From NCBI GenBank assembly GCA_964650475.1, contig CAZYRK010000002.1, forward strand, positions 12,087 to 76,086: a stretch of 64,000 nucleotides of DNA, read 5' to 3'. Source of the DNA: an uncultured Candidatus Saccharibacteria bacterium. GTDB lineage: Bacteria; Patescibacteriota; Minisyncoccia; Phycocordibacterales; Phycocordibacteraceae. The translations under genes and the position numbers were made by a program. A model generated the notes under the pieces. The model had not been told where the DNA came from. It ran no database searches and saw only the letters and a list, made by a program, of their open reading frames with translations. Below, in pieces: positions 2,090 through 26,998 of this stretch. Every line of letters begins with the position of its first letter. Positions within the stretch are counted from its first letter, which is position 1.

Positions 2090-2091
2090 AC

Positions 2092-9526: not shown

Positions 9527-11674
9527 TTACTTGCGTGATGCGATAATATCCAGCGCCACGTTCTGAGGCACGGTCTCGTAGTGATCGAATTCCATAGTCA
9601 TAGAACCTCGACCTTCCGTCATAGAACGCAAAATCGTTGTGTATCCAAACATTTCCGCAAGCGGTACCTTTGCATGAATCGCTTTGTTTATACCTCGGTC
9701 TTCCATTCCTTCTATCGCTCCGCGCTTCCCTGAAAGGTTTCCGGTGATGTCACCCATAAACTCCTCCGGAACAATAACCTCAACCTCCATTACAGGCTCG
9801 AGCAGTACCGGCTTTGCTTTTTGCACAGCCTCGTGGAAAGCCTGTGACGCTGCGATTTTGAAAGCAATCTCAGACGAGTCCACTTCATGGTATGAACCGT
9901 CGTACAGCTCAACAGAAACGTCAACAATCGGGTAACCTGCGAGCACACCCCTGTCCAAACCTTCACGAATTCCTTTTTCTACAGCCGGAATATATTCCTG
10001 CGGAATAACACCTCCCTTAATACTGTTGATGAATTCGAAATGGTCTTCGCGTTTAATATTTTTCGGAACCTTTGCACCTTCTTCAATCGGCTCAAGCGGT
10101 TTAATGCGAATTTTCACATGCCCGTACTGGCCACGCCCACCGGTCTGTTTGATGTATTTATTTTCAACTTCCGCAGAAGTCTTGATAGCTTCACGGTACG
10201 CTACCTGTGGCTTGCCAACATTTGCTTCAACATTAAACTCTCGCTTCATACGGTCAACAAGAATGTCGAGGTGAAGCTCGCCCATACCTGCGATAATAGT
10301 CTCCATAGTTTCATCATCTGTTGAAACACGGAACGTCGGATCTTCATCGGATAGTTTGTGAAGAGCGATTCCAAGCTTTTCCTGATCGGCTTTGGTCTTC
10401 GGCTCAATACGCAAAGAAACAACCGGCTCCGGAAAGATTATCTCTTCCAAAACAATCGGGTGCGCTTCGTCACAAAGAGTATGAGATGTTTTTGTATCTT
10501 TCAGTCCAACCGCCGCCGCAATCTCACCGGCAAAAACCTTTTTTACTTCCTCACGCTTGTCCGCTTGAAGTCGCACGATACGCCCGATGCGCTCTTTGGT
10601 TCCCGTATTTGCATTGTATACATACGAACCAGCCTCAAGCGTCCCTGCGTAGACACGAAAGAAAGTAAGTGTCCCAACGAAAGGGTCGGTTTGGATTTTG
10701 AATGCGAGCGCTGTGAACGGTTCGTCATCTGATGGTTTACGCTCGATTTCTTCACCGCTCTTCGGGTCTATACCTTTAACTGGTGGCAAGTCTACAGGCG
10801 ATGGAAGATAGTCCGCAACAGCATCGAGCACCGGCTGTACACCTTTGTTTTTCAAAGCAGAGCCCGTAAACACAGGAAAGATTTCATTTGAAATTACAGC
10901 TTTACGAAGAGCGCTCTTAAGCTCTTCAAGAGAAGGCTCGTTTCCTTCAAGATAAGCGCTCATAAGATTTTCGTCTTGCTCTACAATACGCTCAACCAAT
11001 TCTGCTCGGTACTTCTTTGCATCTTCTTTTAGATTTTCCGGCACCTCAATAATCACAACTTCTTCACCCATGTTTCCTTCGAAATGAAAAGCCTTCATTG
11101 TGAGCAGATCTACAGCTCCTTCATGTTCGCCTTCCTCACCTATCGGTATTTGCATACGCACCGCTTTTTTGGAAAGACGGTCTTCAATGCTTTTATATGA
11201 ACGCTCGAACGACGCTCCAGTACGATCGAGTTTATTTATGAAACACAATCGAGGAACATTTGCATCGTCTGCGTAGCGCCAGTTTGTTTCTGTTTGCGGT
11301 TCAACACCTGAAACACCGTCGAAAACAACGACAGCACCATCGAGTACACGCATAGAACGCTGAACCTCTGCGGTAAAGTCGATGTGCCCTGGGGTGTCAA
11401 TAATATTAAAACGGAACTTCTTGGACATATCTTTTTTATCCATTTCATCTGTCTTGCTCCAGAAGCATGTAATGGCAGCGGAGGTTATTGTGATACCTCG
11501 CTCACGTTCCTGCTCCATCCAGTCTGTTGTTGTTTCTCCTTCATGAACTTCACCAATTTTGTGTTGGCTACCTGTATAGAAAAGAACACGTTCAGATGTA
11601 GTTGTTTTACCGGCGTCAATATGTGCAATGATGCCGAAGTTGCGTACTTTTTCAAGCGGATAATCTCGATTCAT
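9527..11674 (-). CDS. fusA: Elongation factor G
   Basis: 715 aa, [13 protein letters not shown].. G-domain, full-length EF-G architecture. Confidence 0.97.
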
Positions 11675-11876
11675 AGATAATTGTTACAAAAAATAAGATG
11701 CTCCGACGGTTTTACCAAAACGCTTACACATATGAAAACATATTATCTTTCCATACAACAAGCGAGTGGCTAAAAAGACCGCCAAAAGCGTTGCTTAGAG
11801 GATAACCTAACTACCATAAAATGCAATCTTATATACAAAAATTGTCCGAAGCAACCGAAACGCATACTGTTTTCCT

Positions 11877-12281
11877 TTAGTGATTTAGCTTCCCGCTAGG
11901 GTCAATATGTGTAATACAGAAAAATTGTTGTTTTTGATAACCAAACACGCGAAACAGCTTGTCTGACTCGACACGAAAATGAAAATAATACTGTTCCATA
12001 AGATTACCCTCATAAGTGCTCTGCGTACTTATTAAATTGAAGTTTGGAGCTCCTTGTTTTTCAAACGTTAGCCCCTTTTTTCTTGAGAGATTCGCAAACT
12101 GCTTCCATGTTAATTTTTCCACATATTGCAGTTTGTGTAAAAAAATTTTTGCTTGCTCCTTATTTAAGGGCCAGAACGAATACTTTTTATCAAGCGAGCA
12201 GTCACTTATGGAAAAACAAATTTTTTCTTCTGCGTATTCAAGATTAATTTTTGTTGATACGTCGTGTTCGTCCATAGGCAA
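11877..12281 (-). CDS. Hypothetical protein; candidate toxin partner of the upstream Panacea-domain gene
   Basis: 134-aa ORF 13 nt downstream of the DUF4065 gene on the same strand. The C-terminus YYFHFRVESDKLFRVFGYQKQQFFCITHID loosely resembles RelE/ParE/HigB-type toxin C-termini. No confident family call. Confidence 0.35.
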   Translation of the reverse strand: MPMDEHDVSTKINLEYAEEKICFSISDCSLDKKYSFWPLNKEQAKIFLHKLQYVEKLTWKQFANLSRKKGLTFEKQGAPNFNLISTQSTYEGNLMEQYYFHFRVESDKLFRVFGYQKQQFFCITHIDPSGKLNH

Positions 12282-12294
12282 GGAAAAACCCGAC

Positions 12295-12759
12295 CTATTT
12301 ATTCAATAACGGGCTGTAATACTCTTTAAGGGCTTTGTTTGAAATGATTTGACTCGATGTTTTGTTTGCTTCTTTCCATGGAGTATGAGCATGGGTAATA
12401 TTAACGAGCTTGCTTGCGGAATAACCACCGAAAGTGTTCCAGATTATTTGAACAACTTTTTTATCCTCTTCGGAAAGCGATGACTTGCCGTCATCAATAA
12501 TCGGATTACTGCCATTACTTCGATATTTTTTATAAACACGCGAAACAACCGGTCCGTACTCCCACGCTTCAATATCATCAGAAAAAAGTGCCCTACCTAA
12601 TTTTGCAATATAATATGCCTGCGCAAAATATAATATCTTTTGTAATTTAAGATTTGTGATTCCTTCGCGTTCCTGATTATCGCCGACAAGCTCTTTTGAA
12701 GCGAGATGGATGAAATATTTTGCAACATTGTCGGCTGTGTAAGTTATTTTTTTAGCCAT
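12295..12759 (-). CDS. Panacea-domain (DUF4065/SocA-like) antitoxin-family protein
   Basis: ..NLKLQKILYFAQAYYIAKLGRALFSDDIEAWEYGPVVSRVY.. matches the DUF4065 core. The likely start is the internal MAKKITYT (12759); the ORF extends to 12822. Confidence 0.65.
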   Translation of the reverse strand: MAKKITYTADNVAKYFIHLASKELVGDNQEREGITNLKLQKILYFAQAYYIAKLGRALFSDDIEAWEYGPVVSRVYKKYRSNGSNPIIDDGKSSLSEEDKKVVQIIWNTFGGYSASKLVNITHAHTPWKEANKTSSQIISNKALKEYYSPLLNK

Positions 12760-12858
12760 ATATAAACTATATCTTGCTGAGTAACAAAAGCCAACAAAAT
12801 CCCGGCAATCATCATTGTGCATAAGTAAAGCGCGCGTAGTTATATATTGTTCAGCACA

Positions 12859-12898
12859 CCGGGCTACTTAGGGGTCGCCCCCCCCTAAGTAGCCCGGG
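12859..12898. repeat. 40-bp hairpin element, copy 1 (flanks hicAB)
   Basis: CCGGGCTACTTAGGGGTCGCCCCCCCCTAAGTAGCCCGGG. The same core is repeated at 13363-13400 in the same orientation. Confidence 0.7.
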
Positions 12899-12905
12899 AT
12901 GTTTA

Positions 12906-13100
12906 CTATTTTTTACTTATGCCTATTATACCGAGGTCATTACAAATTTTTTTCGCAAGAAAGTTATTTATCTCATTATGTCTTGGAACGGTGGATAATT
13001 TTTTAATGGTTGGATTGAGATACACGCTATGCTTTGCACCCTCCCGCAAAAATATACACCCACATTTTATAAGATGTTTTATGAGGTCAGTCCTTTTCAT
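12906..13100 (-). CDS. hicA: HicA-family mRNA interferase toxin
   Basis: 64 aa, MKRTDLIKHLIKCGCIFLREGAKHSVYLNPTIKKLSTVPRH is close to the HicA consensus (..GSHhxF.hP....tVP.H). Confidence 0.8.
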   Translation of the reverse strand: MKRTDLIKHLIKCGCIFLREGAKHSVYLNPTIKKLSTVPRHNEINNFLAKKICNDLGIIGISKK

Positions 13101-13360
13101 TAGATGGAGACAATGAGATTCTCTTTTATAATTTTTTGCTTGCTATTTGACTTATACATCAAACGGTTTGTCTCCAGCACCAAAAAAAGTGCGTCTTTAA
13201 GATTTTCTTTTGTCTCACTCAGTGTGGCACCTTGAGTATTCACGCCGGGGACTTCTTCAATCCACCCAGAGTACCACTTTCCATCTTTTTTATAGTTTGC
13301 TGTAAATTGTCTTTTCATATACATAGTATACATTACATTAATATATAGATGCGAGCCCAC
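13100..13360 (-). CDS. hicB: HicB-family antitoxin
   Basis: 86 aa, ..YKKDGKWYSGWIEEVPGVNTQGATLSETKENLKDALFLVLE is the HicB/UPF0150 fold signature. The stop overlaps the hicA start. Confidence 0.7.
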   Translation of the reverse strand: MGSHLYINVMYTMYMKRQFTANYKKDGKWYSGWIEEVPGVNTQGATLSETKENLKDALFLVLETNRLMYKSNSKQKIIKENLIVSI

Positions 13361-13362
13361 GG

Positions 13363-13400
13363 GGGTTACTTAGGGGTCGCCCCCCCCTAAGTAACCCGGG
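13363..13400. repeat. 40-bp hairpin element, copy 2 (flanks hicAB)
   Basis: GGGGTTACTTAGGGGTCGCCCCCCCCTAAGTAACCCGGGG has an identical loop and core, with compensatory stem changes versus copy 1. Confidence 0.7.
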
Positions 13401-13406
13401 GTGTGA

Positions 13407-13709
13407 TTATTGTCTGGCGTAGCACCCCATAAGCTCCGCGACTGTGATTATGTGCCCCTGCATTTCTGAAAGTACAGTGTCTTTTGTTACCCTTTCTTTA
13501 AGAGAAAGATTTGTATCAAGTGCGTACAGGCTGAAAAAATAACGATGCTCTTTCGGCTCATACTGCGGTGGCGGGCAATGTCCGGTATAGCCATTTTTGC
13601 CGGAACCGTTTGCCCCTTGTGTTCCAAGAATGGTGCCTACGGACAATTGAAAGCGGTGGAGATATGTTTTCACCATCGCACGTGTAGCGCTCGGGGATAT
13701 AATCACCAT
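13407..13709 (-). pseudogene. PEBP/YbhB-YbcL family protein, 5'-truncated remnant
   Basis: ..GYTGHCPPPQYEPKEHRYFFSLYALDTNLSL...GHIITVAELMGCY matches the C-terminal two-thirds of YbhB-type PEBP. The N-terminal ~60 aa are missing, and only 112 nt separate it from the rpsG stop. Confidence 0.5.
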
Positions 13710-13763
13710 TTGAGAATGCGGTTGAGACGAGTGCCGTTTGTATATGTTTATGTTAGCCCAACG

Positions 13764-13797
13764 AAAGGGGCGCGCGACAAAGTCGCGCGCCCCTTTC
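13764..13797 (-). terminator. Hairpin after rpsG
   Basis: AAAGGGGCGCGCGAC-AAA-GTCGCGCGCCCCTTTC. Confidence 0.45.
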
Positions 13798-13821
13798 CCT
13801 TTTTAGTGCCTTTCACTTACT

Positions 13822-14301
13822 CTACCAAGCAAAGTGCGCAAAAGCCTTGTTTGACTCCGCCATGCGGTGCATGTCGTCTTTCTTTTTAACTGCGTCTCCT
13901 TCACCTTTAGCCGCGAGCAGAAGCTCTTCTGCGAGTTTTTCAGACATTGGTCGTCCTTTTTTGTTGCGTGCTCCGTTTATTATCCAACGAAAAGCCAGTG
14001 CGAGTCTGCGCTGTTGCGGAACTTCGCGAGGAACCTGATAGTTTGCACCACCTACACGACGAGAACGAACCTCCATAAGAGGAGAAACATTGCGTATCGC
14101 CATTTCAAAAGTTTCAAGCGCGTCAATCTTTGTTCCCTCTTCGTTTTTAAAGTCGAGACTTCCAAGAGCATCGTACACAACCTTGCGTGCGATATCTTTC
14201 TTTCCGTCCAACATAACAGCGTTAATGAAACGGGTAAGCGTTTCAGAACCGTATTTAAGATCGGGGTTCCATGTGCGGGGATTTTTAATTGGGTGTCTCA
14301 T
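13822..14301 (-). CDS. rpsG: 30S ribosomal protein S7
   Basis: 159 aa, S7-like (..FINAVMLDGKK..ARKVVY.A..), follows rpsL. Confidence 0.9.
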   Translation of the reverse strand: MRHPIKNPRTWNPDLKYGSETLTRFINAVMLDGKKDIARKVVYDALGSLDFKNEEGTKIDALETFEMAIRNVSPLMEVRSRRVGGANYQVPREVPQQRRLALAFRWIINGARNKKGRPMSEKLAEELLLAAKGEGDAVKKKDDMHRMAESNKAFAHFAW

Positions 14302-14310
14302 ATTAAAATA

Positions 14311-14718
14311 TTAGTTCGGTTTTTTAGCTCCGTATCGTGAGCGTCCGCGACGGCGCTTGTCTACACCAGCAGCGTCGAGTTTACCTCGAACGATAGTGTA
14401 TTGCACGCCGATGTCTTTAACGCGACCACCGCGAAGAAGCACAACGGAGTGTTCCTGAAGGTTGTGACCTTCTCCCGGTACATACGCGGTAACTTCCATA
14501 CCGTTTGTAAGACGTACACGTGCGATTTTTCGAATAGCAGAGTTCGGTTTGCGAGGAGTCTTTGTGGTTACTTTTGTACACACACCTCTTTTAAAAGGAG
14601 ATGGGTAATTCGTCGGTCGGTTTTTAAGAGCATTGAAACCACGCGAAAGCGCAACGACTTTTGTCTTGCGGGTTTTGTTTTTGCGTGGCTTGTGTGAAAG
14701 CTGATTGATTGTTGACAT
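14311..14718 (-). CDS. rpsL: 30S ribosomal protein S12
   Basis: 135 aa, [13 protein letters not shown]...[16 protein letters not shown] is S12-like. Confidence 0.93.
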
Positions 14719-14753
14719 TTCGAATATAAAAACCCCACAAAGGGCTTGCGAGC

Positions 14754-14782
14754 ACTATATATGATATGCGAAGGAATTGCAA
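14754..14782 (-). promoter_or_regulatory. Candidate sigma70-type promoter for rpsL-rpsG
   Basis: Minus strand reads TTGCAA-N17-TATAGT, about 35 nt upstream of the rpsL ATG. Confidence 0.3.
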
Positions 14783-15039
14783 CGTCACGGCTTGCCGACA
14801 CTACAAAACCCGATAGTCAGTTAGGATTTAATATTAAAACTATTACAATTTTTTGTCACTATATCTGCCACGCAACTAAGGTGTGTAACTTAATTGCCAG
14901 CACGAAACAGAAACAAAACATATTGTGGATAATCACACTACTTTTATTGACTAAAAAATATCATTAATATAATATTCAAGATACGAAATGCCGGGGAGCG
15001 AGCGTGATGCCGCGATCCGGTTTTTCTATTTGTTTTTGC

Positions 15040-15828
15040 TCAAGGTAATACTTTTATTGCCTCGACCTTATCAAGGAACCTCTTTTTTAAAACTTTGGCA
15101 TTTCTGGGCGCACGAAATATTTTTTTATTAAGTATTCGCAACATAATTTCTTCATAAGAGTTTTTCTTAATTTTCTTTTTAAGATATTTACATTTAATCG
15201 CATATGCGAACAAATCCGCAATTTGCTCCTCTATATCATGATTCTTTTTTGAAACAAAGGATATTGAAGTTATTGTCTCTTGAACTTTTTTATATGATAC
15301 TTTTGGTACAGTGAGTCCCTCTGATAGAAAATACCCGAGTGCGCGATGAAAATAAAAATCTTTTTCTGCTGTCGCGCTTTCAATAACAACCTCTCCGCGT
15401 GAATCATGAGAAAGCAATATCAATATGAAATTGCGAATCATTGATTTTGCCGTTTCTTTGTAGATTTTTGTTTCGTCCCAACCTAATTTTTTGGTTTTCT
15501 CCTTATCAACAATTGCAAAAAACATTTTGAATTTCGAGTCGATCAAAAGAGCCTCGAGATCATGCAAGAAGTTTTTGTGAATATCCTTGCCTCTTAAAAT
15601 TGCAAATTCGCCATCTCTACGTCCAATTTCACGTGAGTGAAAAATTATATCTGTGTGTCCCCAATATTTAAACTTAATTTAATCTGCGAATATTTTTATG
15701 CGCGCTCGCTCAGAATCACTAACCGAGCAGCAAGACAAAACATACAAAGGGGAAGGATGTTTATAGCTTGCATGTCCGAGCTCATCTATAAATAGTTTGT
15801 ATGCGATTTTGTCAAAATGGTTTGTCAT
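15040..15828 (-). pseudogene. DUF3800-family protein interrupted by in-frame TAA
   Basis: N-part (15682-15828) reads MTNHFDKIAYKLFIDELGHASYKHPSPLYVLSCCSV.., then TAA at 15679-15681, then the same frame continues ..KYWGHTDIIFHSREIGRRDGEF...FAIVDKEK...VVIESATAEKD...ADLFAYAI, which is a DUF3800 architecture. The downstream part alone starts at TTG. Confidence 0.55.
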
Positions 15829-16066
15829 AACAAGACAATATATATAATATCAGCAGTATCCAAACATCTCTAATTTAAGTCTAGAAATATAAATATTGGT
15901 AGCTGGTAGAAAACTGCGACAAAAAAACAATGCTATTTTAGCCCTTTATTGAAAGGGCTTTTCTCGCGGTTTTTGAAACAGCCATTGCTTCATATTATCC
16001 TTATATAATCAATTTTACTCATATTGGCTGAAAGATTATCCACCTATGTTCTAAAAAGGGTGTCGC

Positions 16067-18835
16067 ATGTACACCATAAAGATATTAAAATGTAAACCAA
16101 TGCGCGCACATAAGCCCCTACTCTTTTCACTCGCAGTTTTTATCTTTGCTGTTTTGGTAGGCGTGCCTCAAGTCTCTCGGGCAGATACAAATCCAAATAT
16201 TCCACAATGCCCAAGATTCGAAAAAACCGGGCTGCGCTGGACAAATCCAGACCCGCATCGAAACACTTTCAATCAGACTTTTCCTAAAATAGATATGACT
16301 GGGGATATTTTTATATCTAATTATCCTGGTATTTTTATGCAGGACGGTGGCACGTACTCTTTTCCTTTTCATATACCCAGTTTTGGTTATGTGGTTATTG
16401 CAGGTACAAACTGTTCCAAAACAAAAGGCGACCTGTACTTTCTTCCGAAAGATTCCAGCGCACGCCAATTCGTAACGAGCTTCCATGGAGCCGGAGATAT
16501 TTTTGGGGGTTCACCTTACAGCCCACCGGACATTACTTATTTCCAATGGAAAAAATCCGGGCAATACGAGCTTGATATCCAAGAAAAGAATTCTGACACC
16601 GGCACATATGCGCTTACAAAAACCATTCACTTTACAGCAATAAACACCGACAACCCTTGCTCTGCCCCCAATTCCTGTTTTGACAATGTTCTTTTTATCC
16701 CGGGCACCGAAGCGAGCAGACTGTACTACAAAGACGGTTTTGGTGAACACCAAGTATGGGAACCGGATTTTTATACCGATATACCGTACCTAGAAATGAA
16801 CCAAGACGGCACGAGCAAACACACGCTGTACACGAAAGACATTATCGGGAGTTTGTATGGGAACACTACGGTCGAGAAAAAGATTGCTCTGCAATACTTA
16901 AACCAGGACGGAGTACAGGTCTACGGAAACTTCGAAAAGTTTATGAACGGGCTCGTAGCTTCAAGCACAATTAAGCAATGGTCTGCTTACCCCTACGACT
17001 GGCGCTACAGCGCGGACGACATTGTAAACAACGGAACTCTCACAGAAATGCCAAACGGCACCTTAAAACGCGTTTATATTGAAAAAGAGATCGAAAACCT
17101 TGCGTCAAGCTCCCCGACGGGGAAAGTAATGATTGTGGCACATTCAAATGGTGGTTTGGTTGCAAAAGAGCTTTTACAGAAACTCTCCAACGACGGCAAG
17201 CTAAAGCTTGTTGACAAGTTCGTTATGGTTGCCACTCCGCAATGGGGTACACCGGAAGCTATCGGCGTACTATTGCATGGAGACGGACAGACTCAAGCGC
17301 ACGGGCTTCTTATGAGCAGTGCCGAGACCCGAAGAGTAACAAAAACAATGCCCGGAGCTTACGACCTTTTGCCATCCTGGGAATATTTTCAGCAAATTAC
17401 TATTCCGGTTATCACTATCGATGCAAACGGCTCCGCCACAAACGACCTTGCAAAAGCTTTCGGAACAAAAATATCTTATTTCACAGAATTCGCAAATTTT
17501 CTTGAACACGGGTTTGGATATTTCCCCGCCCCGCAAGACACGGACACAGCACTGCGCACACCTATAGCTCTTTCCAAAAAACTCATCGATAAAGCAAAAG
17601 ACATGCATTTTCTTATAGACGTAGCGACCAGATGGTCGGATCTTTACGGTATCGACGTAACAGCGATAGCAGGCTGGGGGCAAAACACAGTAAAAACACT
17701 GGCGTACTCTACCGGGCAAAAAACAATCTGCACAAACCTCACCGCCGATGTTATAAACGCTTTTGAACCTCCGTGCCATACCTACTATTATCTCGAACAC
17801 ACACCGGTAACAACCCAAGGTGGAGACGGCACCGTCGTTTATCAAAGTGCTGTTGGAAATATTATTCACGAGTTGTTTTTTGATTCTTTTCTTTTCAAGA
17901 AAATCTTCCACGAGAAAATAGTCCACCAAAACATAACCTCCGCACCGCCAATACAAAATGTAATTAAAGACATTCTTACAAACAAAAAAGTACAGAAAAC
18001 AAACTACATAACAAAAACAAAACCTTCTTCCGGTGAAACTTTCCACGAAATCCGTATAAGCTCTCATTCTCCGGTAAATATTCTTATAACTTCCGCAAAC
18101 GGGGAACAGAGCGGTGTTGTCCATATTCCCGGCACAGACTTCTCTGGAACAAAAATGGATATTCTAGGAAGCTCCGTGCAGGTTTTCGATACAGAAGAGT
18201 ATGTAAGCCTTCCAAAAAATGGAAACTATAAAGTGGTTGCGCGGGGTCACGGAAACGGCACAGCAACAATACTTATTGAAACGATAGCCCAAGACGGAAC
18301 TGCGAGCACTACAAATACGTTTGCGGAAATTCCGACCACGGCAAGCTCCACCATTACTTTCTCCGTATCAAAAGGACAGCCTACAGCACCTATAATAGAC
18401 CTCACAGGAACCGGCAAACACACTTTTACCATACCTGTTGGCAACGACCCGCTCGCATATGTTCTTTATATGAAAAACGCGATTAAAGAAATGAATCTCT
18501 CTCGCGGTGAGCACTTTGTTATCAATGCAAAGCTCTCCGTGATAGAAATGCAGATAAAAAGCTCCAAAGAAACATCGCGATTTTTCAGAAAGGTGTGGCG
18601 AGGACACAGACCATACGGCAAACTGAGCGCCTGGCGAAACAAACAGATTAAATTTGAGCTTGCTGTTCTTACTCGCTATATCAACCACCAGTTTTCTCTT
18701 TCTGCGCGTATCGATAAAAATAAAGACATGCGCTCGCATCGGCACTTCGCCCGATACAATATGCAACCACACATAAGTGCGACGCAAGCTGAAACCATTA
18801 TCGATATGATCAACCGCCTAAAAAACTTAATCTAA
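16067..18835 (+). CDS. Secreted alpha/beta-hydrolase (lipase/esterase-like, GHSxG-type nucleophile elbow) with large C-terminal region
   Basis: 922 aa with a signal peptide (MRAHKPLLFSLAVFIFAVLVGVPQVSRA) and IVAHSNGGLVAKELL nucleophile motif typical of PGAP1/lipase-class hydrolases. The last ~120 aa are unusually basic. Confidence 0.6.
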   Translation: MYTIKILKCKPMRAHKPLLFSLAVFIFAVLVGVPQVSRADTNPNIPQCPRFEKTGLRWTNPDPHRNTFNQTFPKIDMTGDIFISNYPGIFMQDGGTYSFPFHIPSFGYVVIAGTNCSKTKGDLYFLPKDSSARQFVTSFHGAGDIFGGSPYSPPDITYFQWKKSGQYELDIQEKNSDTGTYALTKTIHFTAINTDNPCSAPNSCFDNVLFIPGTEASRLYYKDGFGEHQVWEPDFYTDIPYLEMNQDGTSKHTLYTKDIIGSLYGNTTVEKKIALQYLNQDGVQVYGNFEKFMNGLVASSTIKQWSAYPYDWRYSADDIVNNGTLTEMPNGTLKRVYIEKEIENLASSSPTGKVMIVAHSNGGLVAKELLQKLSNDGKLKLVDKFVMVATPQWGTPEAIGVLLHGDGQTQAHGLLMSSAETRRVTKTMPGAYDLLPSWEYFQQITIPVITIDANGSATNDLAKAFGTKISYFTEFANFLEHGFGYFPAPQDTDTALRTPIALSKKLIDKAKDMHFLIDVATRWSDLYGIDVTAIAGWGQNTVKTLAYSTGQKTICTNLTADVINAFEPPCHTYYYLEHTPVTTQGGDGTVVYQSAVGNIIHELFFDSFLFKKIFHEKIVHQNITSAPPIQNVIKDILTNKKVQKTNYITKTKPSSGETFHEIRISSHSPVNILITSANGEQSGVVHIPGTDFSGTKMDILGSSVQVFDTEEYVSLPKNGNYKVVARGHGNGTATILIETIAQDGTASTTNTFAEIPTTASSTITFSVSKGQPTAPIIDLTGTGKHTFTIPVGNDPLAYVLYMKNAIKEMNLSRGEHFVINAKLSVIEMQIKSSKETSRFFRKVWRGHRPYGKLSAWRNKQIKFELAVLTRYINHQFSLSARIDKNKDMRSHRHFARYNMQPHISATQAETIIDMINRLKNLI

Positions 18836-19301
18836 CTTTATGAAACTCTGGTATAAAAAATCTAGCCTTTTCATACTCGCCGGCATTTCGTATCTTGTCG
18901 GGCAGTATTTTAGAGGAGAATGGTGGCCTTTTTTCACATGGCCATTCAAATGCAATATGATAACTTCAGGAACCGCCATGTACTGCGACCCTAAATATAT
19001 GGACACTCTCGGCTTTCCTCTCATCGTCCTCGGACAGACGCTCGCTATCGTTGCGCTCATACTTTTGCTTGCAAACGAAAGTGCTTTTCGCAAATGGCTT
19101 CACTTTAGTTATTGGTATGTGCCTGTTGCAACAATACTCTCGTTTATGATGTATCCCGCCCATACCCCTCTTGGCGGAGAGGTTTCTATTTCGCAAGGTG
19201 TTTATTTGTTTGGGAGACCGTATGTTCTCATCACCGCCGGGATTGTAATTCTATATATTCTAAAATTCCTAAAGAGACAACTTCGGGAAAGGAGACTCCG
19301 A
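18791..19301. repeat. 511-bp direct repeat, copy 1
   Basis: Identical ORFs on both strands and identical boundary sequence imply that 18791-19301 equals 19990-20500. It includes the last 45 nt of the hydrolase gene. Confidence 0.75.
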
Positions 19302-19316
19302 GTGAAGCGAGACTAG
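18840..19316 (+). CDS. Hypothetical polytopic membrane protein (copy 1)
   Basis: 158 aa, ~4 predicted TM helices. The first 153 aa are identical to ORF 20039-20536. Confidence 0.5.
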   Translation: MKLWYKKSSLFILAGISYLVGQYFRGEWWPFFTWPFKCNMITSGTAMYCDPKYMDTLGFPLIVLGQTLAIVALILLLANESAFRKWLHFSYWYVPVATILSFMMYPAHTPLGGEVSISQGVYLFGRPYVLITAGIVILYILKFLKRQLRERRLRVKRD

Positions 19317-19428
19317 CCGAGAGTTAACAGAAGCCCAAAACAGAAGTGTTTTAACACTGGCGAACACTTTGCACAGAAAAACATACGCTCGATTCAAGTT
19401 TCCACCTCCATATGATAGGGTTTGATAT

Positions 19429-19743
19429 ATGAAGAATACTTTCAAAAAAGGGGTTTCCAGAGTTTTGATTTTTTTCGATACTGCGGAAAAAGTTTGGTAT
19501 GGGGTTGCTTTGGATTTTAATCTTATCGTTGACGGAAACGAACCGGAGACGGTTCGGAAAGACCTCCGGAATTTAATGCTCGACTATATCGACTCTGCAA
19601 AAAAGCTGGGGGACGAAAAACTTTTGAATAGAAAAATCGATAGTGAGTATGAAAAGATATGGAAAGAACTAGAAAAAGGAAACTTGGAAAAGAAGCTTTT
19701 GTCTCCATATCGGTTCTACTCTGCGAGTAAAGAATATGTCTAA
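19429..19743 (+). CDS. hicB: HicB-like antitoxin (UPF0150 fold)
   Basis: 104 aa, ..VLIFFDTAEKVWYGVALDFNLIVDGNEPETVRKDLRNLMLDYIDSA is a HicB-like pattern. It overlaps downstream hicA by 8 nt. Confidence 0.5.
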   Translation: MKNTFKKGVSRVLIFFDTAEKVWYGVALDFNLIVDGNEPETVRKDLRNLMLDYIDSAKKLGDEKLLNRKIDSEYEKIWKELEKGNLEKKLLSPYRFYSASKEYV

Positions 19744-19975
19744 TTGTTATAAAAATTGGATTTTTATAGATATTAAAAAGTTTTTAGTTATAAACGATTT
19801 CAAATTGTTGAGACAAAAAGGAAGTCATGTTCATTTTTATAAAAAAGTACATGGAAAAACTTTTTTGGTTACGGTTCCATTCCATGGGAAGCAAAGCCTT
19901 AAAATAAAGACTATGAAAAATGTCATCGACAATTCACAAATTGATAAAGAAAAATGGTTTGAATTTAAAAAATAA
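19736..19975 (+). CDS. hicA: HicA-family toxin
   Basis: 79 aa, ..FKLLRQKGSHVHFYKKVHGKTFLVTVPFHGKQSLKIKTMKNVI matches HicA consensus. Confidence 0.65.
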   Translation: MSNCYKNWIFIDIKKFLVINDFKLLRQKGSHVHFYKKVHGKTFLVTVPFHGKQSLKIKTMKNVIDNSQIDKEKWFEFKK

Positions 19976-19989
19976 GTAATTGCTCTTAA

Positions 19990-20500
19990 GAAACCATTAT
20001 CGATATGATCAACCGCCTAAAAAACTTAATCTAACTTTATGAAACTCTGGTATAAAAAATCTAGCCTTTTCATACTCGCCGGCATTTCGTATCTTGTCGG
20101 GCAGTATTTTAGAGGAGAATGGTGGCCTTTTTTCACATGGCCATTCAAATGCAATATGATAACTTCAGGAACCGCCATGTACTGCGACCCTAAATATATG
20201 GACACTCTCGGCTTTCCTCTCATCGTCCTCGGACAGACGCTCGCTATCGTTGCGCTCATACTTTTGCTTGCAAACGAAAGTGCTTTTCGCAAATGGCTTC
20301 ACTTTAGTTATTGGTATGTGCCTGTTGCAACAATACTCTCGTTTATGATGTATCCCGCCCATACCCCTCTTGGCGGAGAGGTTTCTATTTCGCAAGGTGT
20401 TTATTTGTTTGGGAGACCGTATGTTCTCATCACCGCCGGGATTGTAATTCTATATATTCTAAAATTCCTAAAGAGACAACTTCGGGAAAGGAGACTCCGA
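19990..20500. repeat. 511-bp direct repeat, copy 2
   Basis: See copy 1. It starts with a duplicated fragment of the hydrolase 3' end (..ETIIDMINRLKNLI*). Confidence 0.75.
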
Positions 20501-20536
20501 AAAATAAAAGCACGCGAATCTACAGACACACACTAA
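20039..20536 (+). CDS. Hypothetical polytopic membrane protein (copy 2, different C-terminus)
   Basis: 165 aa. It diverges from copy 1 only after residue 153, where the repeat ends. Confidence 0.5.
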   Translation: MKLWYKKSSLFILAGISYLVGQYFRGEWWPFFTWPFKCNMITSGTAMYCDPKYMDTLGFPLIVLGQTLAIVALILLLANESAFRKWLHFSYWYVPVATILSFMMYPAHTPLGGEVSISQGVYLFGRPYVLITAGIVILYILKFLKRQLRERRLRKIKARESTDTH

Positions 20537-20699
20537 ACCAGCCAACGACTTTGTCGTTGGCTGTATTTTTTTATATATGTACTTTGCTAGTTTGCTTTTA
20601 TAAGCTGCGCAGTAAAACCGGCGCGCCGGTTTTACTCTTCACCGCCCCACTTTCCTACCTTCTCTTTAAGCTCCCTCTTATAGAAAAAACTATTCAGTG

Positions 20700-21413
20700 T
20701 CAGAAGAACGCTTCCGTACAGATTTTTTCTTCATCCACACCGATAGACTTAAGCCCTCTCCACATATCTCGCACAAACGATATCGAACCACATATGAAAA
20801 ACTCCGCTTCGGTTTTTCTATTAAGTTTATTTAAAACCGTTTCCGCAGACATTCTGCCATAAGTCATTTCAGTTGGGATATTTTCTTCTTGTGTGATGAA
20901 ATAATCCACTTTTATAAACAGGTGCTCAAGAGCCAGCTTGTCGAGTGTCTTATGAAAGACAATATCAGAAACTGTTTTGTTGCTGTAAAAAAGATGCATT
21001 TCCCTTTCCTGTTTTTTACCCACAGAATCGAGCATTACGCTCCGAAAAGGAGCTACGCCGATACCGCCCGCAAGCATTACAAGCATACTGGCTTTGGACT
21101 CGCTATAAAAATACCCGCTTGGAGCTGACGCTAAAAAAGTATCTCCCGGAGCAAGAGCGCACAGCCGGCGCGAAAAGTCTCCACGTGCACTTACCGTTAT
21201 GCTTATCGGCTCTGTCGGGGCACTTGAAATACTGTATGCCTTGCCTTCTGGTGTGCCGAGCTCCGGAAGATACACTGTTATAAATTGCCCGGGTACATAC
21301 TCTGCAGGCTCTCCTTCGCACGAAAGACGCAAGGTCGTAACACTTGGTGTCTCAATTTCAGTGCTTGTCACCGTATATATTTTTTTATTTGTTTTTTGCA
21401 TCATTTTTTTCAT
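20700..21413 (-). CDS. FAD/NAD(P)-binding oxidoreductase (ferredoxin-NADP reductase-like)
   Basis: 237 aa, FAD-binding ..KAYSISS.. and NAD-binding MLAGGIGVAPF motifs. Confidence 0.7.
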   Translation of the reverse strand: MKKMMQKTNKKIYTVTSTEIETPSVTTLRLSCEGEPAEYVPGQFITVYLPELGTPEGKAYSISSAPTEPISITVSARGDFSRRLCALAPGDTFLASAPSGYFYSESKASMLVMLAGGIGVAPFRSVMLDSVGKKQEREMHLFYSNKTVSDIVFHKTLDKLALEHLFIKVDYFITQEENIPTEMTYGRMSAETVLNKLNRKTEAEFFICGSISFVRDMWRGLKSIGVDEEKICTEAFF

Positions 21414-21825
21414 AGTCTTTTATTGCATCTTTAAGTGCCAAATGCCCCAGAACCGAACAATGGTATTTACGATCCGGAAGCCCCTCAAGTCTTTCGATAA
21501 TCGCCTCGGGCTGTATCTTTTTGGCGCGGGCAATAAGCATTCCACCATTTTCAGTCACCATCAAAGACAACATCGAGGTAGAAGCTATCGCTGACGCGCA
21601 ACCGAAAGTACGCCACTTGCACTCTGTTATTTTTTGATTTCCCTTATCAACTCGTATCCATATCGCCATCATGTCGCCACACGCAGGGCTTCCCACGACA
21701 CCGACACCGTCTGCCACATAGTTTTTTTCATCAAGCAATATGTTCCGCGGATTAAAGAAATGATCTTTCACCACTTCACTGTAAAGCCACCCTTCTACAT
21801 CGCATTTTTTTATTTCTGTTTTCAT
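21385..21825 (-). CDS. nifU: Fe-S cluster scaffold NifU/IscU-like
   Basis: ..GSPACGDMM...WRTFGCASAIASTS.. conserved Cys ligands of IscU/NifU N-domain. Confidence 0.85.
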   Translation of the reverse strand: MKTEIKKCDVEGWLYSEVVKDHFFNPRNILLDEKNYVADGVGVVGSPACGDMMAIWIRVDKGNQKITECKWRTFGCASAIASTSMLSLMVTENGGMLIARAKKIQPEAIIERLEGLPDRKYHCSVLGHLALKDAIKDYEKNDAKNK

Positions 21826-23021
21826 AAACATATCTCTAGCGCTGACAACGACCTTAATTTTTTAATAATTTCAGGCAAAACACCGAGTACGTATTTCAAT
21901 TCTTTTAGAGTTGTATACCTTCCTAACGAAAAGCGAATACTTCCGTGCGCAAGCTCCGCACTTTGCCCGATAGCCAAAAGCACATGCGAAGGTCGCAAGT
22001 CTCGCGCAGAGCACGCGGAACCGGTCGCAACCTCTACGCCCATGCTGTCCAGCATAAGCAGTATCGATTCCCCTTCTATATTTGGAAAAGAAAAATGCAC
22101 ATTGCCCGGAAGGCGTTTGGTAGGGTGTCCGTTAAGAATTGCCTCCGGAATTTCTTTCTTCACACGAGCGATAAAGTAGTCGCGGAGCTTGGCGAGGCGC
22201 GCCGGCTCTTTATCTCGCATCAAATCTGCAATGCGAAGAGCTTCGGCACACCCCACGATAAAAGGTACGCTCTGTGTGCCGGCGCGCACCCCGCCCTCTT
22301 GCCCACCACCAACAATGACGGGCTCTATTCGCACCCCGTTTCTTTTATATAAAAAGCCAATGCCTTTAGGTCCATACATTTTAGAACCATTGAGAGTCAT
22401 CAGGTCGACACCCGTTTCTAAAACGCTAAGCGACAAAAAACCCGGAGCCTGACAAGCATCGGTATGCAAAAGTGGAAATTGTTTTCCTCCACGAAAAGTT
22501 TGGATAAGTTTGGAGATTTCACGAATCGGCTCGACCGTCCCTATTTCATTATTTGCATACATTACAGAAACCAACACAGTGTCGTCACGCAACATCTCAG
22601 AAAGACGCTTCGTATCGATTATCCCGTTTGAAAGCACTGGTGCCACACTTACCTCAAATCCCTCGCGCTCCAAAAGATGCGCGCTCTCAAACACTGCTTT
22701 GTGTTCTATGGAAGAAATTATGATGTGTCGCCCGTTTGCTTTATTTGCTCGCGCAACGCCAAGCAGTGCAAGGTTGTCCGACTCAGTGCCGGAACCGGTA
22801 AAAATAATCTCCTCTGCGGAGCACTCGAGTACCTTCGCCACAACAGACTTTGCTTCTTTAATAGCGTGCATAGCCCTACGTCCGCTTGCATAAAGTGAAG
22901 ACGGATTACCATAACGCTTATCAAAATACAGCATCATCGCTTTAAGCACTCGCGGATCAAGCGGTGTTGTTGCGGAGTAGTCTAGATATACAGAGCTATC
23001 GGATTGCGCAGTAATCGACAT
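21822..23021 (-). CDS. nifS: Cysteine desulfurase (NifS/IscS, class V aminotransferase)
   Basis: 399 aa, ..IYLDYSATTPLD.. N-terminus, PLP-lysine region, catalytic loop ..GSACSA... Confidence 0.9.
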   Translation of the reverse strand: MSITAQSDSSVYLDYSATTPLDPRVLKAMMLYFDKRYGNPSSLYASGRRAMHAIKEAKSVVAKVLECSAEEIIFTGSGTESDNLALLGVARANKANGRHIIISSIEHKAVFESAHLLEREGFEVSVAPVLSNGIIDTKRLSEMLRDDTVLVSVMYANNEIGTVEPIREISKLIQTFRGGKQFPLLHTDACQAPGFLSLSVLETGVDLMTLNGSKMYGPKGIGFLYKRNGVRIEPVIVGGGQEGGVRAGTQSVPFIVGCAEALRIADLMRDKEPARLAKLRDYFIARVKKEIPEAILNGHPTKRLPGNVHFSFPNIEGESILLMLDSMGVEVATGSACSARDLRPSHVLLAIGQSAELAHGSIRFSLGRYTTLKELKYVLGVLPEIIKKLRSLSALEICL

Positions 23022-23682
23022 ATTTATTTAGCATTACCTTAAACTCCTCCATTTCCGCATCACTATAGCTAACCTTGTGCTTGAGCTGAGGGTTTAATAT
23101 TTTGGTCGAAACAAACTTCTGCAAAAAATACCGTTTTGCACCTTTTATTTCTTTCCCAATCTGCAAAATATCCTCTTTTGCAAGAATTCCTTTAACAAAG
23201 GTCGTGCGAAACTCATATTTTATCGACGAACCCATCAGAAGCTCCACACTCTTTCGTACCGCTTCAATATTTACAGGCATAGAAACAGTCTGAGGATACA
23301 ATGCGAAAGGTGATTTTATATCCATTGCGATATAGTCGACAACTCCTTTTTCTATCAAGTCGCGAAGCATTTCAGGACGCGTGCCGTTAGAATCCAGCTT
23401 AACAAGGAAGCCTCTATCTTTAATCTTTTTAATAACCTCTGGCAAACCGTCGTGCATTGTCGGCTCGCCTCCGGTGATAACAACACCGTCTAACATTCCT
23501 TTTCGCGTATCCAAAAACTCAAAAAAGCTGTCCTCGGAAATACGAGTTTCAACAGTCTCGTTTACCAGCTCCGGATTATGGCAATACGGGCAATGGAAAT
23601 TACAACCTATAGTGTAGACAACGCACGCAACCTTTCCGGGATAGTCTACAAGCGTAAATTTTTCCAATCCTCCAAACTCCAT
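22996..23682 (-). CDS. nrdG: Anaerobic ribonucleotide reductase activating protein (radical SAM)
   Basis: 228 aa, CNFHCPYC radical-SAM motif, directly downstream of nrdD. Confidence 0.85.
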   Translation of the reverse strand: MEFGGLEKFTLVDYPGKVACVVYTIGCNFHCPYCHNPELVNETVETRISEDSFFEFLDTRKGMLDGVVITGGEPTMHDGLPEVIKKIKDRGFLVKLDSNGTRPEMLRDLIEKGVVDYIAMDIKSPFALYPQTVSMPVNIEAVRKSVELLMGSSIKYEFRTTFVKGILAKEDILQIGKEIKGAKRYFLQKFVSTKILNPQLKHKVSYSDAEMEEFKVMLNKYVDYCAIR

Positions 23683-23686
23683 TTTA

Positions 23687-25855
23687 TTATTTTGTATTTA
23701 CAGCCTCCTCTGCAGAAACCTCAACATGCACAGAAAGAGGGTCGTATGTCTCGCGAGCTTCATACTCTGCTTGCTTCCCTATGTTCCACTGGCTAACCGG
23801 ACGCAAATACCCAACCACACGCGAATATACTTCGCATTCATTTTTGCAAGTCGGACACAGGTGGTGTTCTCCGGCGATATACCCATGAACAGAACACACG
23901 CTAAAGGTGGGGGTTATCGTAAAATATGGCAGTTTATAATTTTCGCAAATCTTTTTTACCAACGCGGGTACAGCTCCGGCATCTGCAATCCTCTCTCCTA
24001 AAAACAAGTGCATCACAGTACCTCCTGTATATTTTGTCTGAAGACCGTCTTGAATATCCATCGCTTCTATAATGTCGTTTGTGTATTGCACCGGAAGATG
24101 AGATGAGTTGGTGTAAAAAGGTGATGCTCCTTTTGCATACTCGCTCTCGTTCGCAACAATAATATCCGGAAACTGTTTTTTATCTTTTTCGGCTATTCGA
24201 TACGAAGTACCCTCTGCCGGAGTAGCCTCTAGGTTGTACAGGTTGCCTGTGTCTTTTTGATATCCGACAAGACGCTCTCTCATATAATCTAAGACTTTCG
24301 TAGCAAACGCATGCCCTTTTTCCGTACCGATATCTTCTCCCAAAAGATTAACCAGCGCTTCATTCATACCCAGCAAACCTATAGTTGAGAAATGGTTTTC
24401 CCAGTACGCACCGTACGATTCTTTTATTTTTCTTAAATAAAACTTTGTGTATGGATACAAATTTGCATCTGTAAGTTTCTCCAGTATTTTACGTTTAATC
24501 TCCAGACTCTCTTTCGCGATATCCATTTGGACAGACAGCAACGAAAAGAACACCTCTTCTGCCTTTTTCATATCACCATGGCTTTTTTGCTTTGCCAGAT
24601 ACCCCAAACGAGGCATGTTTATCGTTACCACGCCCACCGATCCGGTAAGAGCATTTGCACCAAAAAGCCCTCCCCCGCGTCTGTCGAGTGCTTCGAGGTC
24701 GAGTCTTAGCCTGCAACACATCGACCGCGTGTCTTCCGGCTTCATATCTGAATTTACAAAATTGCTAAAGTAAGGCACGCCGTACTTTGCGGTAATCTCC
24801 CACAAGCCACGCAGGTTTGGATTTTCCCAGTCAAAGTCGCTTGTAACATTTACAGTAGGGATTGGAAATGTAAACACGCGTCCGGAAGCGTCTCCCTCGC
24901 TCATCACTTCAAAAAACGCAGAGTTTAACATGTCCATTTCTTTCTGAAATTCGCCGTATGTTTCATCTTGCTCTTCCCCGCCGATGATAACTTTCTGATC
25001 CTTAAAATTCGGTGAGGGTGTGAGGTCGAGCGTAATGTTAGAGAACGGCGTCTGAAAACCAACACGAGTCGGCACATTCATATTGAAAATAAATTCCTGC
25101 ACAGACTGCTTTACCTCTTTTTGAGAAAGGTTGTCGTAGCGAACAAACGGAGCTAGCAATGTGTCGAAATTTGAAAAGGCGATAGCTCCGGCTGCTTCAC
25201 CCTGCAAGGTATACATAAAATTTACCATCTGCCCAAGCGCTACACGCAGATGCTTCGCCGGTGCCGACTCGATTTTACCGGAGACACCGCGAAAACCTTC
25301 TGTGAGCAGGTCCTGCAGATCCCAACCAACGCAATAGACTGCGAGAGTGCCGAGGTCGTGAATGTGAAGACTGCCTTTCTCGTGCGCATCTCTTATTTTT
25401 TTCGGATAGATTTTATTAAGCCAATACGTTTTACTTACTTCTGAAAAAATATGGTTATTCATTCCCTGAAGCGAATAACCCATATTGCTGTTTTCTTTTA
25501 CCTGCCAGTCTAGCTCGCTGAGATAGTTGTCGACCAACCCAAGCGAGACGGAAGTGGCGAAAGCTCGCATTTCTGCATGTTGTTCACGGTAAATTATGTA
25601 AGCCTTTGCCGTAGCGGGAAAATTATTAAGTATGAGCTGGTTTTCTACAATATCCTGCACATCTTCAATAGAAGGAATCTCTTTGGAAAAGTTTTTACTA
25701 ATATCTGAAACGATATTGTTTGTCATTGCAAAAAGAACACTATCTGAGATATTTTCACCTGAAGCTGAAAAAGCCTTTTTAAGCGCACTTGTAATTTTTT
25801 CTGCATCAAAAATAACAACGCTTCCGTTTCTTTTTTTAATTTCAAGTATGGGCAT
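23687..25855 (-). CDS. nrdD: Anaerobic ribonucleoside-triphosphate reductase (class III)
   Basis: 722 aa, N-terminal ATP-cone, C-terminal glycyl-radical motif SRVVGYLRP and CPTC zinc site. Confidence 0.92.
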   Translation of the reverse strand: MPILEIKKRNGSVVIFDAEKITSALKKAFSASGENISDSVLFAMTNNIVSDISKNFSKEIPSIEDVQDIVENQLILNNFPATAKAYIIYREQHAEMRAFATSVSLGLVDNYLSELDWQVKENSNMGYSLQGMNNHIFSEVSKTYWLNKIYPKKIRDAHEKGSLHIHDLGTLAVYCVGWDLQDLLTEGFRGVSGKIESAPAKHLRVALGQMVNFMYTLQGEAAGAIAFSNFDTLLAPFVRYDNLSQKEVKQSVQEFIFNMNVPTRVGFQTPFSNITLDLTPSPNFKDQKVIIGGEEQDETYGEFQKEMDMLNSAFFEVMSEGDASGRVFTFPIPTVNVTSDFDWENPNLRGLWEITAKYGVPYFSNFVNSDMKPEDTRSMCCRLRLDLEALDRRGGGLFGANALTGSVGVVTINMPRLGYLAKQKSHGDMKKAEEVFFSLLSVQMDIAKESLEIKRKILEKLTDANLYPYTKFYLRKIKESYGAYWENHFSTIGLLGMNEALVNLLGEDIGTEKGHAFATKVLDYMRERLVGYQKDTGNLYNLEATPAEGTSYRIAEKDKKQFPDIIVANESEYAKGASPFYTNSSHLPVQYTNDIIEAMDIQDGLQTKYTGGTVMHLFLGERIADAGAVPALVKKICENYKLPYFTITPTFSVCSVHGYIAGEHHLCPTCKNECEVYSRVVGYLRPVSQWNIGKQAEYEARETYDPLSVHVEVSAEEAVNTK

Positions 25856-25875
25856 AATAAATATCGTGATATTAA

Positions 25876-25918
25876 TAAAAAACAGCCGGCGCTCCGCGCC
25901 GGCTGTTTTTTATTTTTT
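25876..25918 (-). terminator. Intrinsic terminator between the riboswitch-like element and the nrdD start (putative expression platform)
   Basis: CAGCCGGCGC-TCC-GCGCCGGCTG stem, followed on the minus strand by TTTTTT, 20 nt upstream of the nrdD ATG. Confidence 0.55.
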
Positions 25919-25939
25919 CTGTAATATAAAAATTCAAAC

Positions 25940-26110
25940 AAAATACCTTACGCGGGCATAAGCATTAGACTTTACGTCTATGTTTTGGATGGTCTGACTT
26001 CTCATACGAGTTACAGTTGCGCGACAGTACCGGACTTGCACCGGTTTCACTCCAAAACTACTTTTAGGCTGTAAACGAACTGCCCTCATCATACCTCATG
26101 CCGGCACATA
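25940..26110 (-). ncRNA. Candidate cobalamin (B12) riboswitch aptamer upstream of nrdDG
   Basis: Minus strand reads ..GGAGTGAAACCGGTGCAAGTCCGGTACTGTCGCGCAACTGTAAC...GAGAAGTCAGACCATCC.., resembling the cobalamin-riboswitch core (GGUG.AA.UCC...CCCGC.ACUGUAA) and B12-box-like AGUCAGACC. It lies in the 5' leader of nrdD. Not verified by a covariance model. Confidence 0.5.
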
Positions 26111-26150
26111 TTGCTCGTGGATAATGCAGATATTTATTTATACCAACGCG

Positions 26151-26990: not shown

Positions 26991-26998
26991 ATATTATA

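Follow-up and report, generated by a model that had tools for sequence, protein, structure and literature searches.

A hicBA toxin-antitoxin cassette between 511-bp direct repeats of a host operon end in Candidatus Saccharibacteria

The locus and its repeats

The subject of this study is a small toxin-antitoxin (TA) cassette of the hicBA type that lies between two long direct repeats in the genome of an uncultured, ultra-small Candidatus Saccharibacteria bacterium (assembly GCA_964650475.1, contig CAZYRK010000002.1). The window that we analysed comprises 64,000 nucleotides of this contig (positions 12,087 to 76,086 of the forward strand), and the coordinates given below refer to the window unless another locus is named. 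The order at the locus is X-R1-Y-R2-Z, in which X stands for the flank up to position 18790, R1 and R2 for the two copies of the repeat (18791-19301 and 19990-20500, 511 bp each), Y for the insert between them (19302-19989, plus strand, 688 bp) and Z for the sequence after R2.

The repeat covers the end of a conserved two-gene operon. The first gene (16067-18835, plus strand) encodes an LCAT-like alpha/beta hydrolase of 922 aa (PF02450, 1.9e-15), with a syntenic orthologue of 922 aa in a close relative (L001, to which X is collinear), and the second encodes a membrane protein with four transmembrane segments. The final 45 nt of the hydrolase gene (15 codons plus stop) sit within R1 and the gene is intact; the rest of the repeat is made up of a spacer of 4 nt and the first 154 codons of the membrane-protein gene. 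The latter gene occurs twice. Copy 1 (18840-19316, plus strand, 158 aa) has its native C-terminal tail swapped for VKRD, which is read from Y, and copy 2 (20039-20536, plus strand, 165 aa) has the tail KIKARESTDTH, followed by a terminator and flank as found after the single gene of L001. Z thus starts with the native tail and then runs into a strong, intrinsic-terminator-like hairpin with a T run (20539-20572, hairpin at 20539-20563, plus strand), which lies outside the repeat and is common to the single-copy locus of L001.

R1 and R2 have the same base at 511 of 511 positions. The identity ends sharply, with zero additional matching bases to the left or to the right, a search for microhomology at both R/Y junctions found none, and a perfect repeat of this length cannot have arisen by chance. 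At the direct-repeat thresholds used, the whole 64-kb window holds seven local direct-repeat families, two of which bracket the two hicBA modules that are present in it.

The initial annotation of this DNA had described the perfect repeat, the presence of the hydrolase 3' end and the membrane-protein gene in each copy, the duplication of minus-strand ORFs of 88 and 76 aa, and an insert of 688 bp with overlapping hicB-like and hicA genes. The ORF coordinates and the domain searches bear out this description. The two membrane proteins indeed differ in their tails, and the number of residues they share had to be corrected from 153 to 154. The minus-strand ORFs of 88 and 76 aa run antisense to the membrane-protein gene and are probably not genes.

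The insert consists of a leader of 127 nt, the hicB-like gene, the hicA gene and just 14 nt after the hicA stop codon. The leader holds the palindrome GTGTTTTAACAC (19346-19357), and a sigma-70-type promoter was not found in it. We conclude that Y is foreign, horizontally acquired DNA, because its GC content is 34% against 44% for the window, because its similarity to X and Z does not rise above that of shuffled controls, and because the closest hicB homologue, at 67% identity, resides in another genomic context, in a metagenome-assembled genome (MAG) of Saccharibacteria (L002). Y encodes only the hicB-like and hicA genes: it contains no transposase ORF, no terminal inverted repeats were found at its ends, and there is no mobile-element gene among its neighbours (the hydrolase gene, the membrane-protein gene and an oxidoreductase gene).

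Three explanations were rejected on the basis of this architecture. An integron cassette does not fit, as the 14 nt between the hicA stop codon and R2 leave no room for an attC site and no integrase is encoded among the neighbouring ORFs. Insertion of an insertion sequence (IS) or transposon is at odds with the lack of a transposase ORF, the lack of inverted repeats at the ends of Y and a duplication of 511 bp. Finally, a simple tandem duplication does not produce two novel junctions and a 688-bp insert that is unrelated to the flanks; the very recent tandem duplication that the initial annotation had offered as one of its two readings is not supported for the same reason.

The genes of the insert

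HicA proteins are RNase toxins and the HicB-like antitoxins that accompany them are labile. The hicA gene of the insert (19736-19975, plus strand) encodes a protein of 79 aa that matches PF07927 (4.8e-11; 43.0 bits versus a cutoff of 27). It carries the motif KGSHVHF within RQKGSHVHF, i.e. the G-x-H motif, the His of which we take to be the catalytic residue. The gene shares 8 nt with the preceding ORF (19429-19743, plus strand), which encodes the antitoxin candidate, a protein of 104 aa from a family that lacks annotation and whose members are about 100 aa long. The family has 87 representatives at E<=1e-3, and the named organisms among them are mostly members of the Candidate Phyla Radiation (CPR)/Parcubacteria. 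In all loci in which the pairing was inspected (the Saccharibacteria MAG L002, the Giovannonibacteria loci L018 and L024, and the loci L025 and L027) the family member is directly followed by a hicA gene of 76-85 aa, either overlapping or a few nt away.

The 104-aa protein found no match in Pfam or among the PDB sequences, and a Pfam search for the individual members of the family was negative as well. An AlphaFold model based on 39 sequences (pLDDT 87) predicts the N-terminal fold of HicB for this adjacent and co-oriented partner of HicA; past residue 60 the model continues with helices and a terminal strand, and no Pfam DNA-binding domain was found in the protein. The negative searches lend no support to HicB membership at the sequence level, and it is the fold comparison that supports the label. 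The name hicB-like thus has support at the level of predicted fold and gene context, not at the level of sequence family.

A comparison with the HicAB type II TA systems (Makarova et al. 2006; structures 6g1c, 5yrz and 4p78) yields the same picture. The cassette shares with them the HicA Pfam domain, the G-S-H motif and the organization as an overlapping two-gene operon. It differs in that the antitoxin matches no HicB/UPF0150 sequence model and has no recognisable ribbon-helix-helix or helix-turn-helix DNA-binding domain, and in that the antitoxin gene comes first in the operon.

Exact-protein look-ups of the window's own ORFs returned no record. Two metagenome scans, for a hicB pattern and for a pattern of the start of Y, returned nothing from a collection that is incomplete (the hicB pattern is present in JGI loci that we fetched), and a scan of viral contigs returned nothing either. 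No match was obtained in a plasmid DNA search or in searches of phage and plasmid proteins, and a scan of genome contigs gave the Saccharibacteria locus and, as its sole other hit, a false positive (MotA in L013). In L002 (4653-7733), a UvrD-like helicase gene that adjoins the nearest hicBA homologue bears an intein (PF14890 and Hint matches).

An empty site and a second haplotype

L001, an ENA scaffold, is collinear with the window over about 17 kb at 95-97.5% identity. It reads X-R-Z: there is one membrane-protein gene, hicBA is absent, and the right flank, including the terminator, matches Z. More specifically, positions 7192-10462 of L001 align to 16031-19301 of the window and positions 9952-17191 to 19990-27214. 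To judge from this alignment, L001 represents either the empty site or a precise deletion allele. The single-copy allele that the initial annotation had suggested looking for is therefore present in a close relative.

A second haplotype of the filled site was reached via the cluster members of near-identical HicB and HicA proteins. The contig in question (L016; VAPM010108248.1, 937 bp, NCBI assembly GCA_006243245.1) contains 71 nt of the end of R, then Y, and then 178 nt of the start of R, with both junctions as in the window; it is too short to span two full copies of the repeat. Its Y differs from that of the window by four SNPs (0.6% divergence). The start of R is window-like for 128 nt and then continues with the L001-type allele of a variable loop that is described below. 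As the last base of R1 is a G in L016 and an A in the window, the target duplication may measure 510 bp instead of 511 bp. The DNA that spans the junctions is thus real in at least two haplotypes.

The second haplotype has a direct bearing on the possibility of an assembly artefact, in which the true order would be X-R-Z and a separate molecule, such as a 1,199-bp circle of R plus Y or a strain variant, would have been threaded in. Such an error would suit the perfect identity of the copies and a contig that appears to be metagenome-derived, and the 511 bp of the repeat exceed typical k-mer sizes, so that the threading depended on pairing or on long reads. However, both junctions occur in an independent and sequence-distinct contig (L016), and the end of R before Y together with the start of R after Y on one molecule demands two (partial) copies or a circle. 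A circle of 1.2 kb would lack a replication function, and the same architecture is found in independent assemblies of other lineages. We consider an artefact very unlikely, and the concern about an assembler-generated duplication, raised in the initial annotation, is largely removed by L016.

The age of the insertion is to be viewed differently from the initial annotation, in which one of the two readings was a very recent event. Because the same two junctions are found in haplotypes that are 0.6% apart in Y and carry different downstream loop alleles, the insertion is older than the split of the two strains. With such a divergence one would expect R1 and R2 to differ at about three positions, and no difference is observed (Poisson P about 0.05). 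Since, in addition, the loop alleles of L016 and the window differ, conversion of one copy by the other and/or an exchange of alleles among strains appears to have acted after the insertion. For the perfect identity of R1 and R2, gene conversion or the history of the alleles is a likelier cause than extreme youth.

Taking the filled site, the single-copy relative and the second haplotype together, we hold it to be very probable that a conserved two-gene operon received, at its end, a 688-bp acquired hicBA cassette together with a target duplication of 511 bp (possibly 510 bp).

The duplicated membrane-protein gene

No host gene was broken at the locus, because the repeat spans the 3' end of the hydrolase gene and nearly the whole membrane-protein gene. 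The hydrolase gene is complete in X plus R1, and the membrane-protein gene is complete in R2 plus Z, where it has its native terminator. The copy in R1 is altered only in the C-terminal tail, a part of the protein that is variable among homologues; the tails of copy 2 and of L001, for instance, differ via a 2-bp indel.

The pair of hydrolase and membrane-protein genes is kept in more distant relatives. The membrane-protein gene is present in single copy in L015 and as two diverged tandem paralogues of 153 and 165 aa in L014 (9916-11127), where the duplicated unit likewise begins within the hydrolase 3' tail. Duplication of the gene is thus recurrent. A repeat of 56 nt with the motif ATAATRCAYAACCACACATCA comes after each paralogue in L014; L015 does not have this motif downstream.

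The arrangement in L014 is also an argument for a different history of the window locus, namely an older tandem duplication of the hydrolase tail and the membrane-protein gene, with a later insertion of hicBA into the spacer and homogenisation of the 511 bp by gene conversion. The same pair is tandemly duplicated in L014 from a start inside the hydrolase 3' tail, and the absence of the roughly three differences expected between R1 and R2 hints at conversion. But Y adjoins R on both sides and nothing is left of a spacer, the 127-nt leader is not significantly similar to either X or Z, the 12 nt that precede R2 match X at 0 of 12 positions, and L001, although 96% identical, is single-copy. We regard this history as highly improbable.

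A separate observation concerns the two-cysteine extracytoplasmic loop of the membrane protein (18919-19017 and 20118-20216; about 10080-10180 in L001; 888-937 in L016). This loop is swapped wholesale between strains, with about 50% nucleotide identity over about 100 bp as compared to about 99% in the flanks. The gene in L016 combines a 5' end of the window type with a loop of the L001 type, and the pattern resembles a cassette-like exchange of alleles within a surface protein. Diversification by a diversity-generating retroelement was rejected, as the alleles differ wholesale and not at adenines only.

Similar loci in other lineages

Other loci that carry the hicBA family of Y were searched for flanking repeats. 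The cassette is surrounded by direct repeats of 29-110 nt in three other lineages (L027, L025 and L018), and so is the first hicBA module of the window; at the related loci the repeats mostly represent the 3' end and/or the terminator of the host gene upstream. The direct repeat in L027, about 90-110 nt long, surrounds a small ORF, hicB and hicA, and consists of the last 18 codons of rplB, the stop codon and the terminator hairpin. The downstream copy encodes the same peptide, KKYSNKFIVNRRRVGKRK, up to and including the stop: four of the four coding differences are synonymous (P about 0.0013 if random), and the stem of the hairpin has a compensatory change from G:C to A:T. A DegT-type aminotransferase gene of L025 has its 3' end present in three copies (70 nt at 86% and 29 nt at 93%); between them lie a DUF5678-containing cassette and, after it, hicBA. 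An alternative C-terminus, in frame and terminated by a stop codon, is formed by the second copy, the differences of which are mostly synonymous. In the Giovannonibacteria locus L018, a hairpin-containing repeat of 48 nt surrounds an rve transposase gene and hicBA. In this locus (1870-3562), and also in L019 and L024, hicBA lies 13 bp downstream of the gene for a 372-aa rve-family transposase (PF00665), and the unit of L018 may be an IS with hicBA as passenger.

The first hicBA module of the window (12906-13360, minus strand) is unrelated to the family of the second. It comprises a hicA gene (PF07927, 12906-13100) and a gene of the UPF0150/HicB-like type (13100-13360), and is bracketed by a GC-rich palindromic hairpin repeat of 42 nt (12861-12902 and 13363-13404, 93% identical) that has just two occurrences in the window. 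The repeat is terminator-like, and the layout, repeat-cassette-repeat, is the same as at the Y locus.

The differences between the repeat copies are informative with respect to their origin. Because they are all synonymous or compensatory in L027 and mostly synonymous in L025, they fit an imported orthologous patch and not a decaying duplicate. As far as sequence comparison goes, this favours, without proving it, an integration via a homology patch, i.e. a Campbell-type integration.

The same differences count against a one-step insertion at a staggered break. In that case, the two strands would have been nicked at sites some 511 nt apart (or a fork would have stalled or reversed), the gaps filled in and a linear hicBA fragment ligated between the ends. 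Both junctions and the duplication would stem from one event in situ, and later allelic exchange would give mosaic copies. The attraction of such an event is that a pre-formed molecule of patch plus cassette is unnecessary; the sharp ends of the repeat without microhomology agree with it, repeat lengths that range from 29 to 511 nt across the loci fit a random stagger, and survivorship in gene-dense CPR genomes would account for repeats that cover gene ends. Nevertheless, a decaying copy would not be expected to show differences of the synonymous-only and compensatory kind seen in L027 and L025 unless extra recombination is added. Moreover, the cargo encodes no DNA-cleaving activity, HicA being an RNase, and end-joining capacity in the host has to be assumed. 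We judge a staggered break, the strongest of the competing explanations, unlikely.

Other features of the window

Three insertions within 8 kb are specific to the strain of the window when L001 is taken for comparison: 11851-13763, 14813-16030, and Y plus R. The first of these, an islet that is absent from L001, separates fusA from rpsG in the str operon and carries genes for a SocA/Panacea antitoxin (12295-12822, PF13274) and a truncated PEBP (13407-13709), a 134-aa ORF of no known identity, and the first hicBA module. The second, between rpsL and the hydrolase gene, contains an ORF of 175 aa (15040-15567, minus strand) with only a weak match to DUF3800.

Further repeats are found downstream. 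REP-like palindromes (TTTTGCGGACACTAAGTGTCCGCAAA) occur in two clusters (45996-46527 and 55616-55846). A direct repeat of 77 nt (45996-46072 and 46451-46527, 91%), made of GGGAAGGTTAGACCTTCCC hairpins, surrounds a region with a small ORF. A direct repeat with a spacing of 999 bp (30803-32101; at least 300 nt compared, 94% identity) corresponds to internal protein repeats of a 1528-aa beta-helix/Big-domain gene (27649-32235, minus strand).

Discussion

To our knowledge, it is poorly understood how TA modules move between genomes when they are not carried by plasmids, phages, transposons or integrons. The locus described here is of use in this respect, in that the filled site can be set beside an empty one and beside a second haplotype.

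The phenomenon of insertion with long target duplication was first described for restriction-modification (RM) genes of H. pylori (Nobusato et al. 2000, Gene 259:99), and subsequent work widened it to many bacteria (Furuta, Abe and Kobayashi 2010, PMC2853133). The RM insertions concern an addiction-type gene complex without mobility genes; they have target duplications of 46-423 bp, often reaching into the 3' end of an adjacent gene, and sister strains have empty sites with one copy (PMC2853133). They occur mostly in naturally competent species, and the mechanism was not explained, although a cycle of insertion, amplification via the repeats and release was hypothesised (PMC2853133).

Apart from the type of cargo, the window locus agrees with every structural criterion of PMC2853133: the flanking direct repeats are longer than 30 bp, the insert is smaller than 20 kb and has no mobility gene, and L001 is a one-copy, insert-free relative in which both flanks align. 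The resemblance extends to a small addiction pair without transposase or integrase, an insert of deviant GC content, repeats that far exceed the target duplications of transposons (46-423 bp for RM, 511 bp in the window), a sister genome that has one repeat copy and no insert, and a repeat that overlaps the 3' end of a neighbour. In contrast to the RM cases, the cargo is a type II TA pair with an RNase toxin, and the breakage of DNA by a cargo nuclease that was proposed for RM genes cannot apply to it. In addition, the host belongs to the CPR/Patescibacteria, the duplication takes in nearly a whole gene and thereby yields a paralogue, and the repeat copies at the related loci resemble orthologous alleles and not decaying duplicates. 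We conclude that the window locus is a variant of the long-target-duplication phenomenon outside the RM set. In the literature, our coverage of which is incomplete, we found no application of long target duplication to TA cassettes or to CPR bacteria.

The structure is also that of a Campbell-type integration as seen in suicide-plasmid integrants. Two direct copies of a patch surround the insert and the relative has the single-copy allele; in both cases the patch-insert-patch product is reversible by recombination between the repeats, and the target genes survive when the patch spans a gene end. The difference is that the element in the window is only 688 bp plus the patch, with no replicon, vector or circle observed, and that the first acquisition of the patch by the cassette is left unexplained. 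A likeness also exists to the TA cassettes of integrons, which are promoter-bearing cassettes of 0.5-1 kb that stabilise arrays and have circular cassette intermediates. However, the window cassette has no attC, IntI or attI, and its repeats are host coding sequence. The minimal mobile elements of Neisseria (Saunders and Snyder 2002) are reportedly small cassettes without mobility genes that strains swap by transformation and homologous recombination in conserved flanking genes. Unlike the window cassette, they involve a double crossover in two different flanking genes and are not known to leave direct target repeats.

With respect to the mechanism, we have a tentative preference for the Campbell-type single crossover of a circular molecule of patch plus cassette, in line with the first of the two readings in the initial annotation. 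The cassette would travel coupled to a patch of the host gene end, and the circle would enter via one RecA-type homologous crossover. The flanking repeats would permit the reverse reaction, a pop-out that yields the circle and restores the empty site, and homologous exchange between strains would then produce mosaic repeat alleles. Considering what is known of the family, HicA and a labile HicB-like antitoxin would penalise loss of the cassette. Such addiction would counter-select recombinational loss and could in this way also stabilise a duplicated membrane-protein gene that would otherwise be unstable. We infer the circular intermediate, the RecA dependence, the addiction and the making of the first two junctions. 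The support for a Campbell integration comes from the synonymous differences in L027 and L025, which fall short of proof. The order in L016 (end of R, Y, start of R) is compatible with a circle. A check for chimerism of the repeat copies gave a pattern that is compatible with Campbell integration and not exclusive to it: there are no differences in the window, whereas R2 of L016 turns from window-like to L001-like after 128 nt.

Several considerations weigh against this mechanism. The window has no signature of donor and recipient because its two repeat copies are identical. The model still requires an earlier illegitimate event that joined Y to R. Around the nearest hicBA relative, in L002, no flanking repeat of at least 25 nt was found, and the patches of 29-48 nt at some of the other loci are marginal, i.e. 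at the lower limit for a RecA-type crossover. The synonymous-only pattern of L027 and L025 could reflect later allelic replacement after a duplication in situ. Furthermore, L016 covers 71 and 178 nt of the repeats, and the addiction is assumed from family knowledge. Weighing all this, we see the explanation taken whole, a long-target-duplication insertion combined with a Campbell cycle, as evenly poised between right and wrong.

The locus extends to an RNase-type TA cassette a mode of insertion that was hitherto tied to RM genes and thought to be reliant on their DNA cleavage. Within one cassette family, we find this mode in no fewer than four lineages with gene-dense CPR genomes. Irrespective of how the insertion came about, a duplication of this length accounts for the landing of the cassette in a gene-dense operon with both neighbours remaining active. 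It also points to a way in which selfish cassettes could generate gene duplicates and keep them stable while operons stay unbroken. A more general proposition, which at present seems quite unlikely to us, is that the TA cassettes of the CPR have a life cycle without a recombinase, in which they would be coupled to the 3' end of a gene (and its terminator), pop out as a circle and re-enter by single crossover wherever that gene end is shared. If this were true, conserved gene ends such as that of rplB would be portable attachment sites across lineages. In addition, the toxin penalty would lock the flanking duplication, and host duplicates (in this case of a membrane protein at the surface whose Cys loop is hypervariable) would have time to become paralogues. 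The weight of the finding would grow if allele-like repeats prove to be the mark of a general, recombinase-free mechanism of TA mobility.

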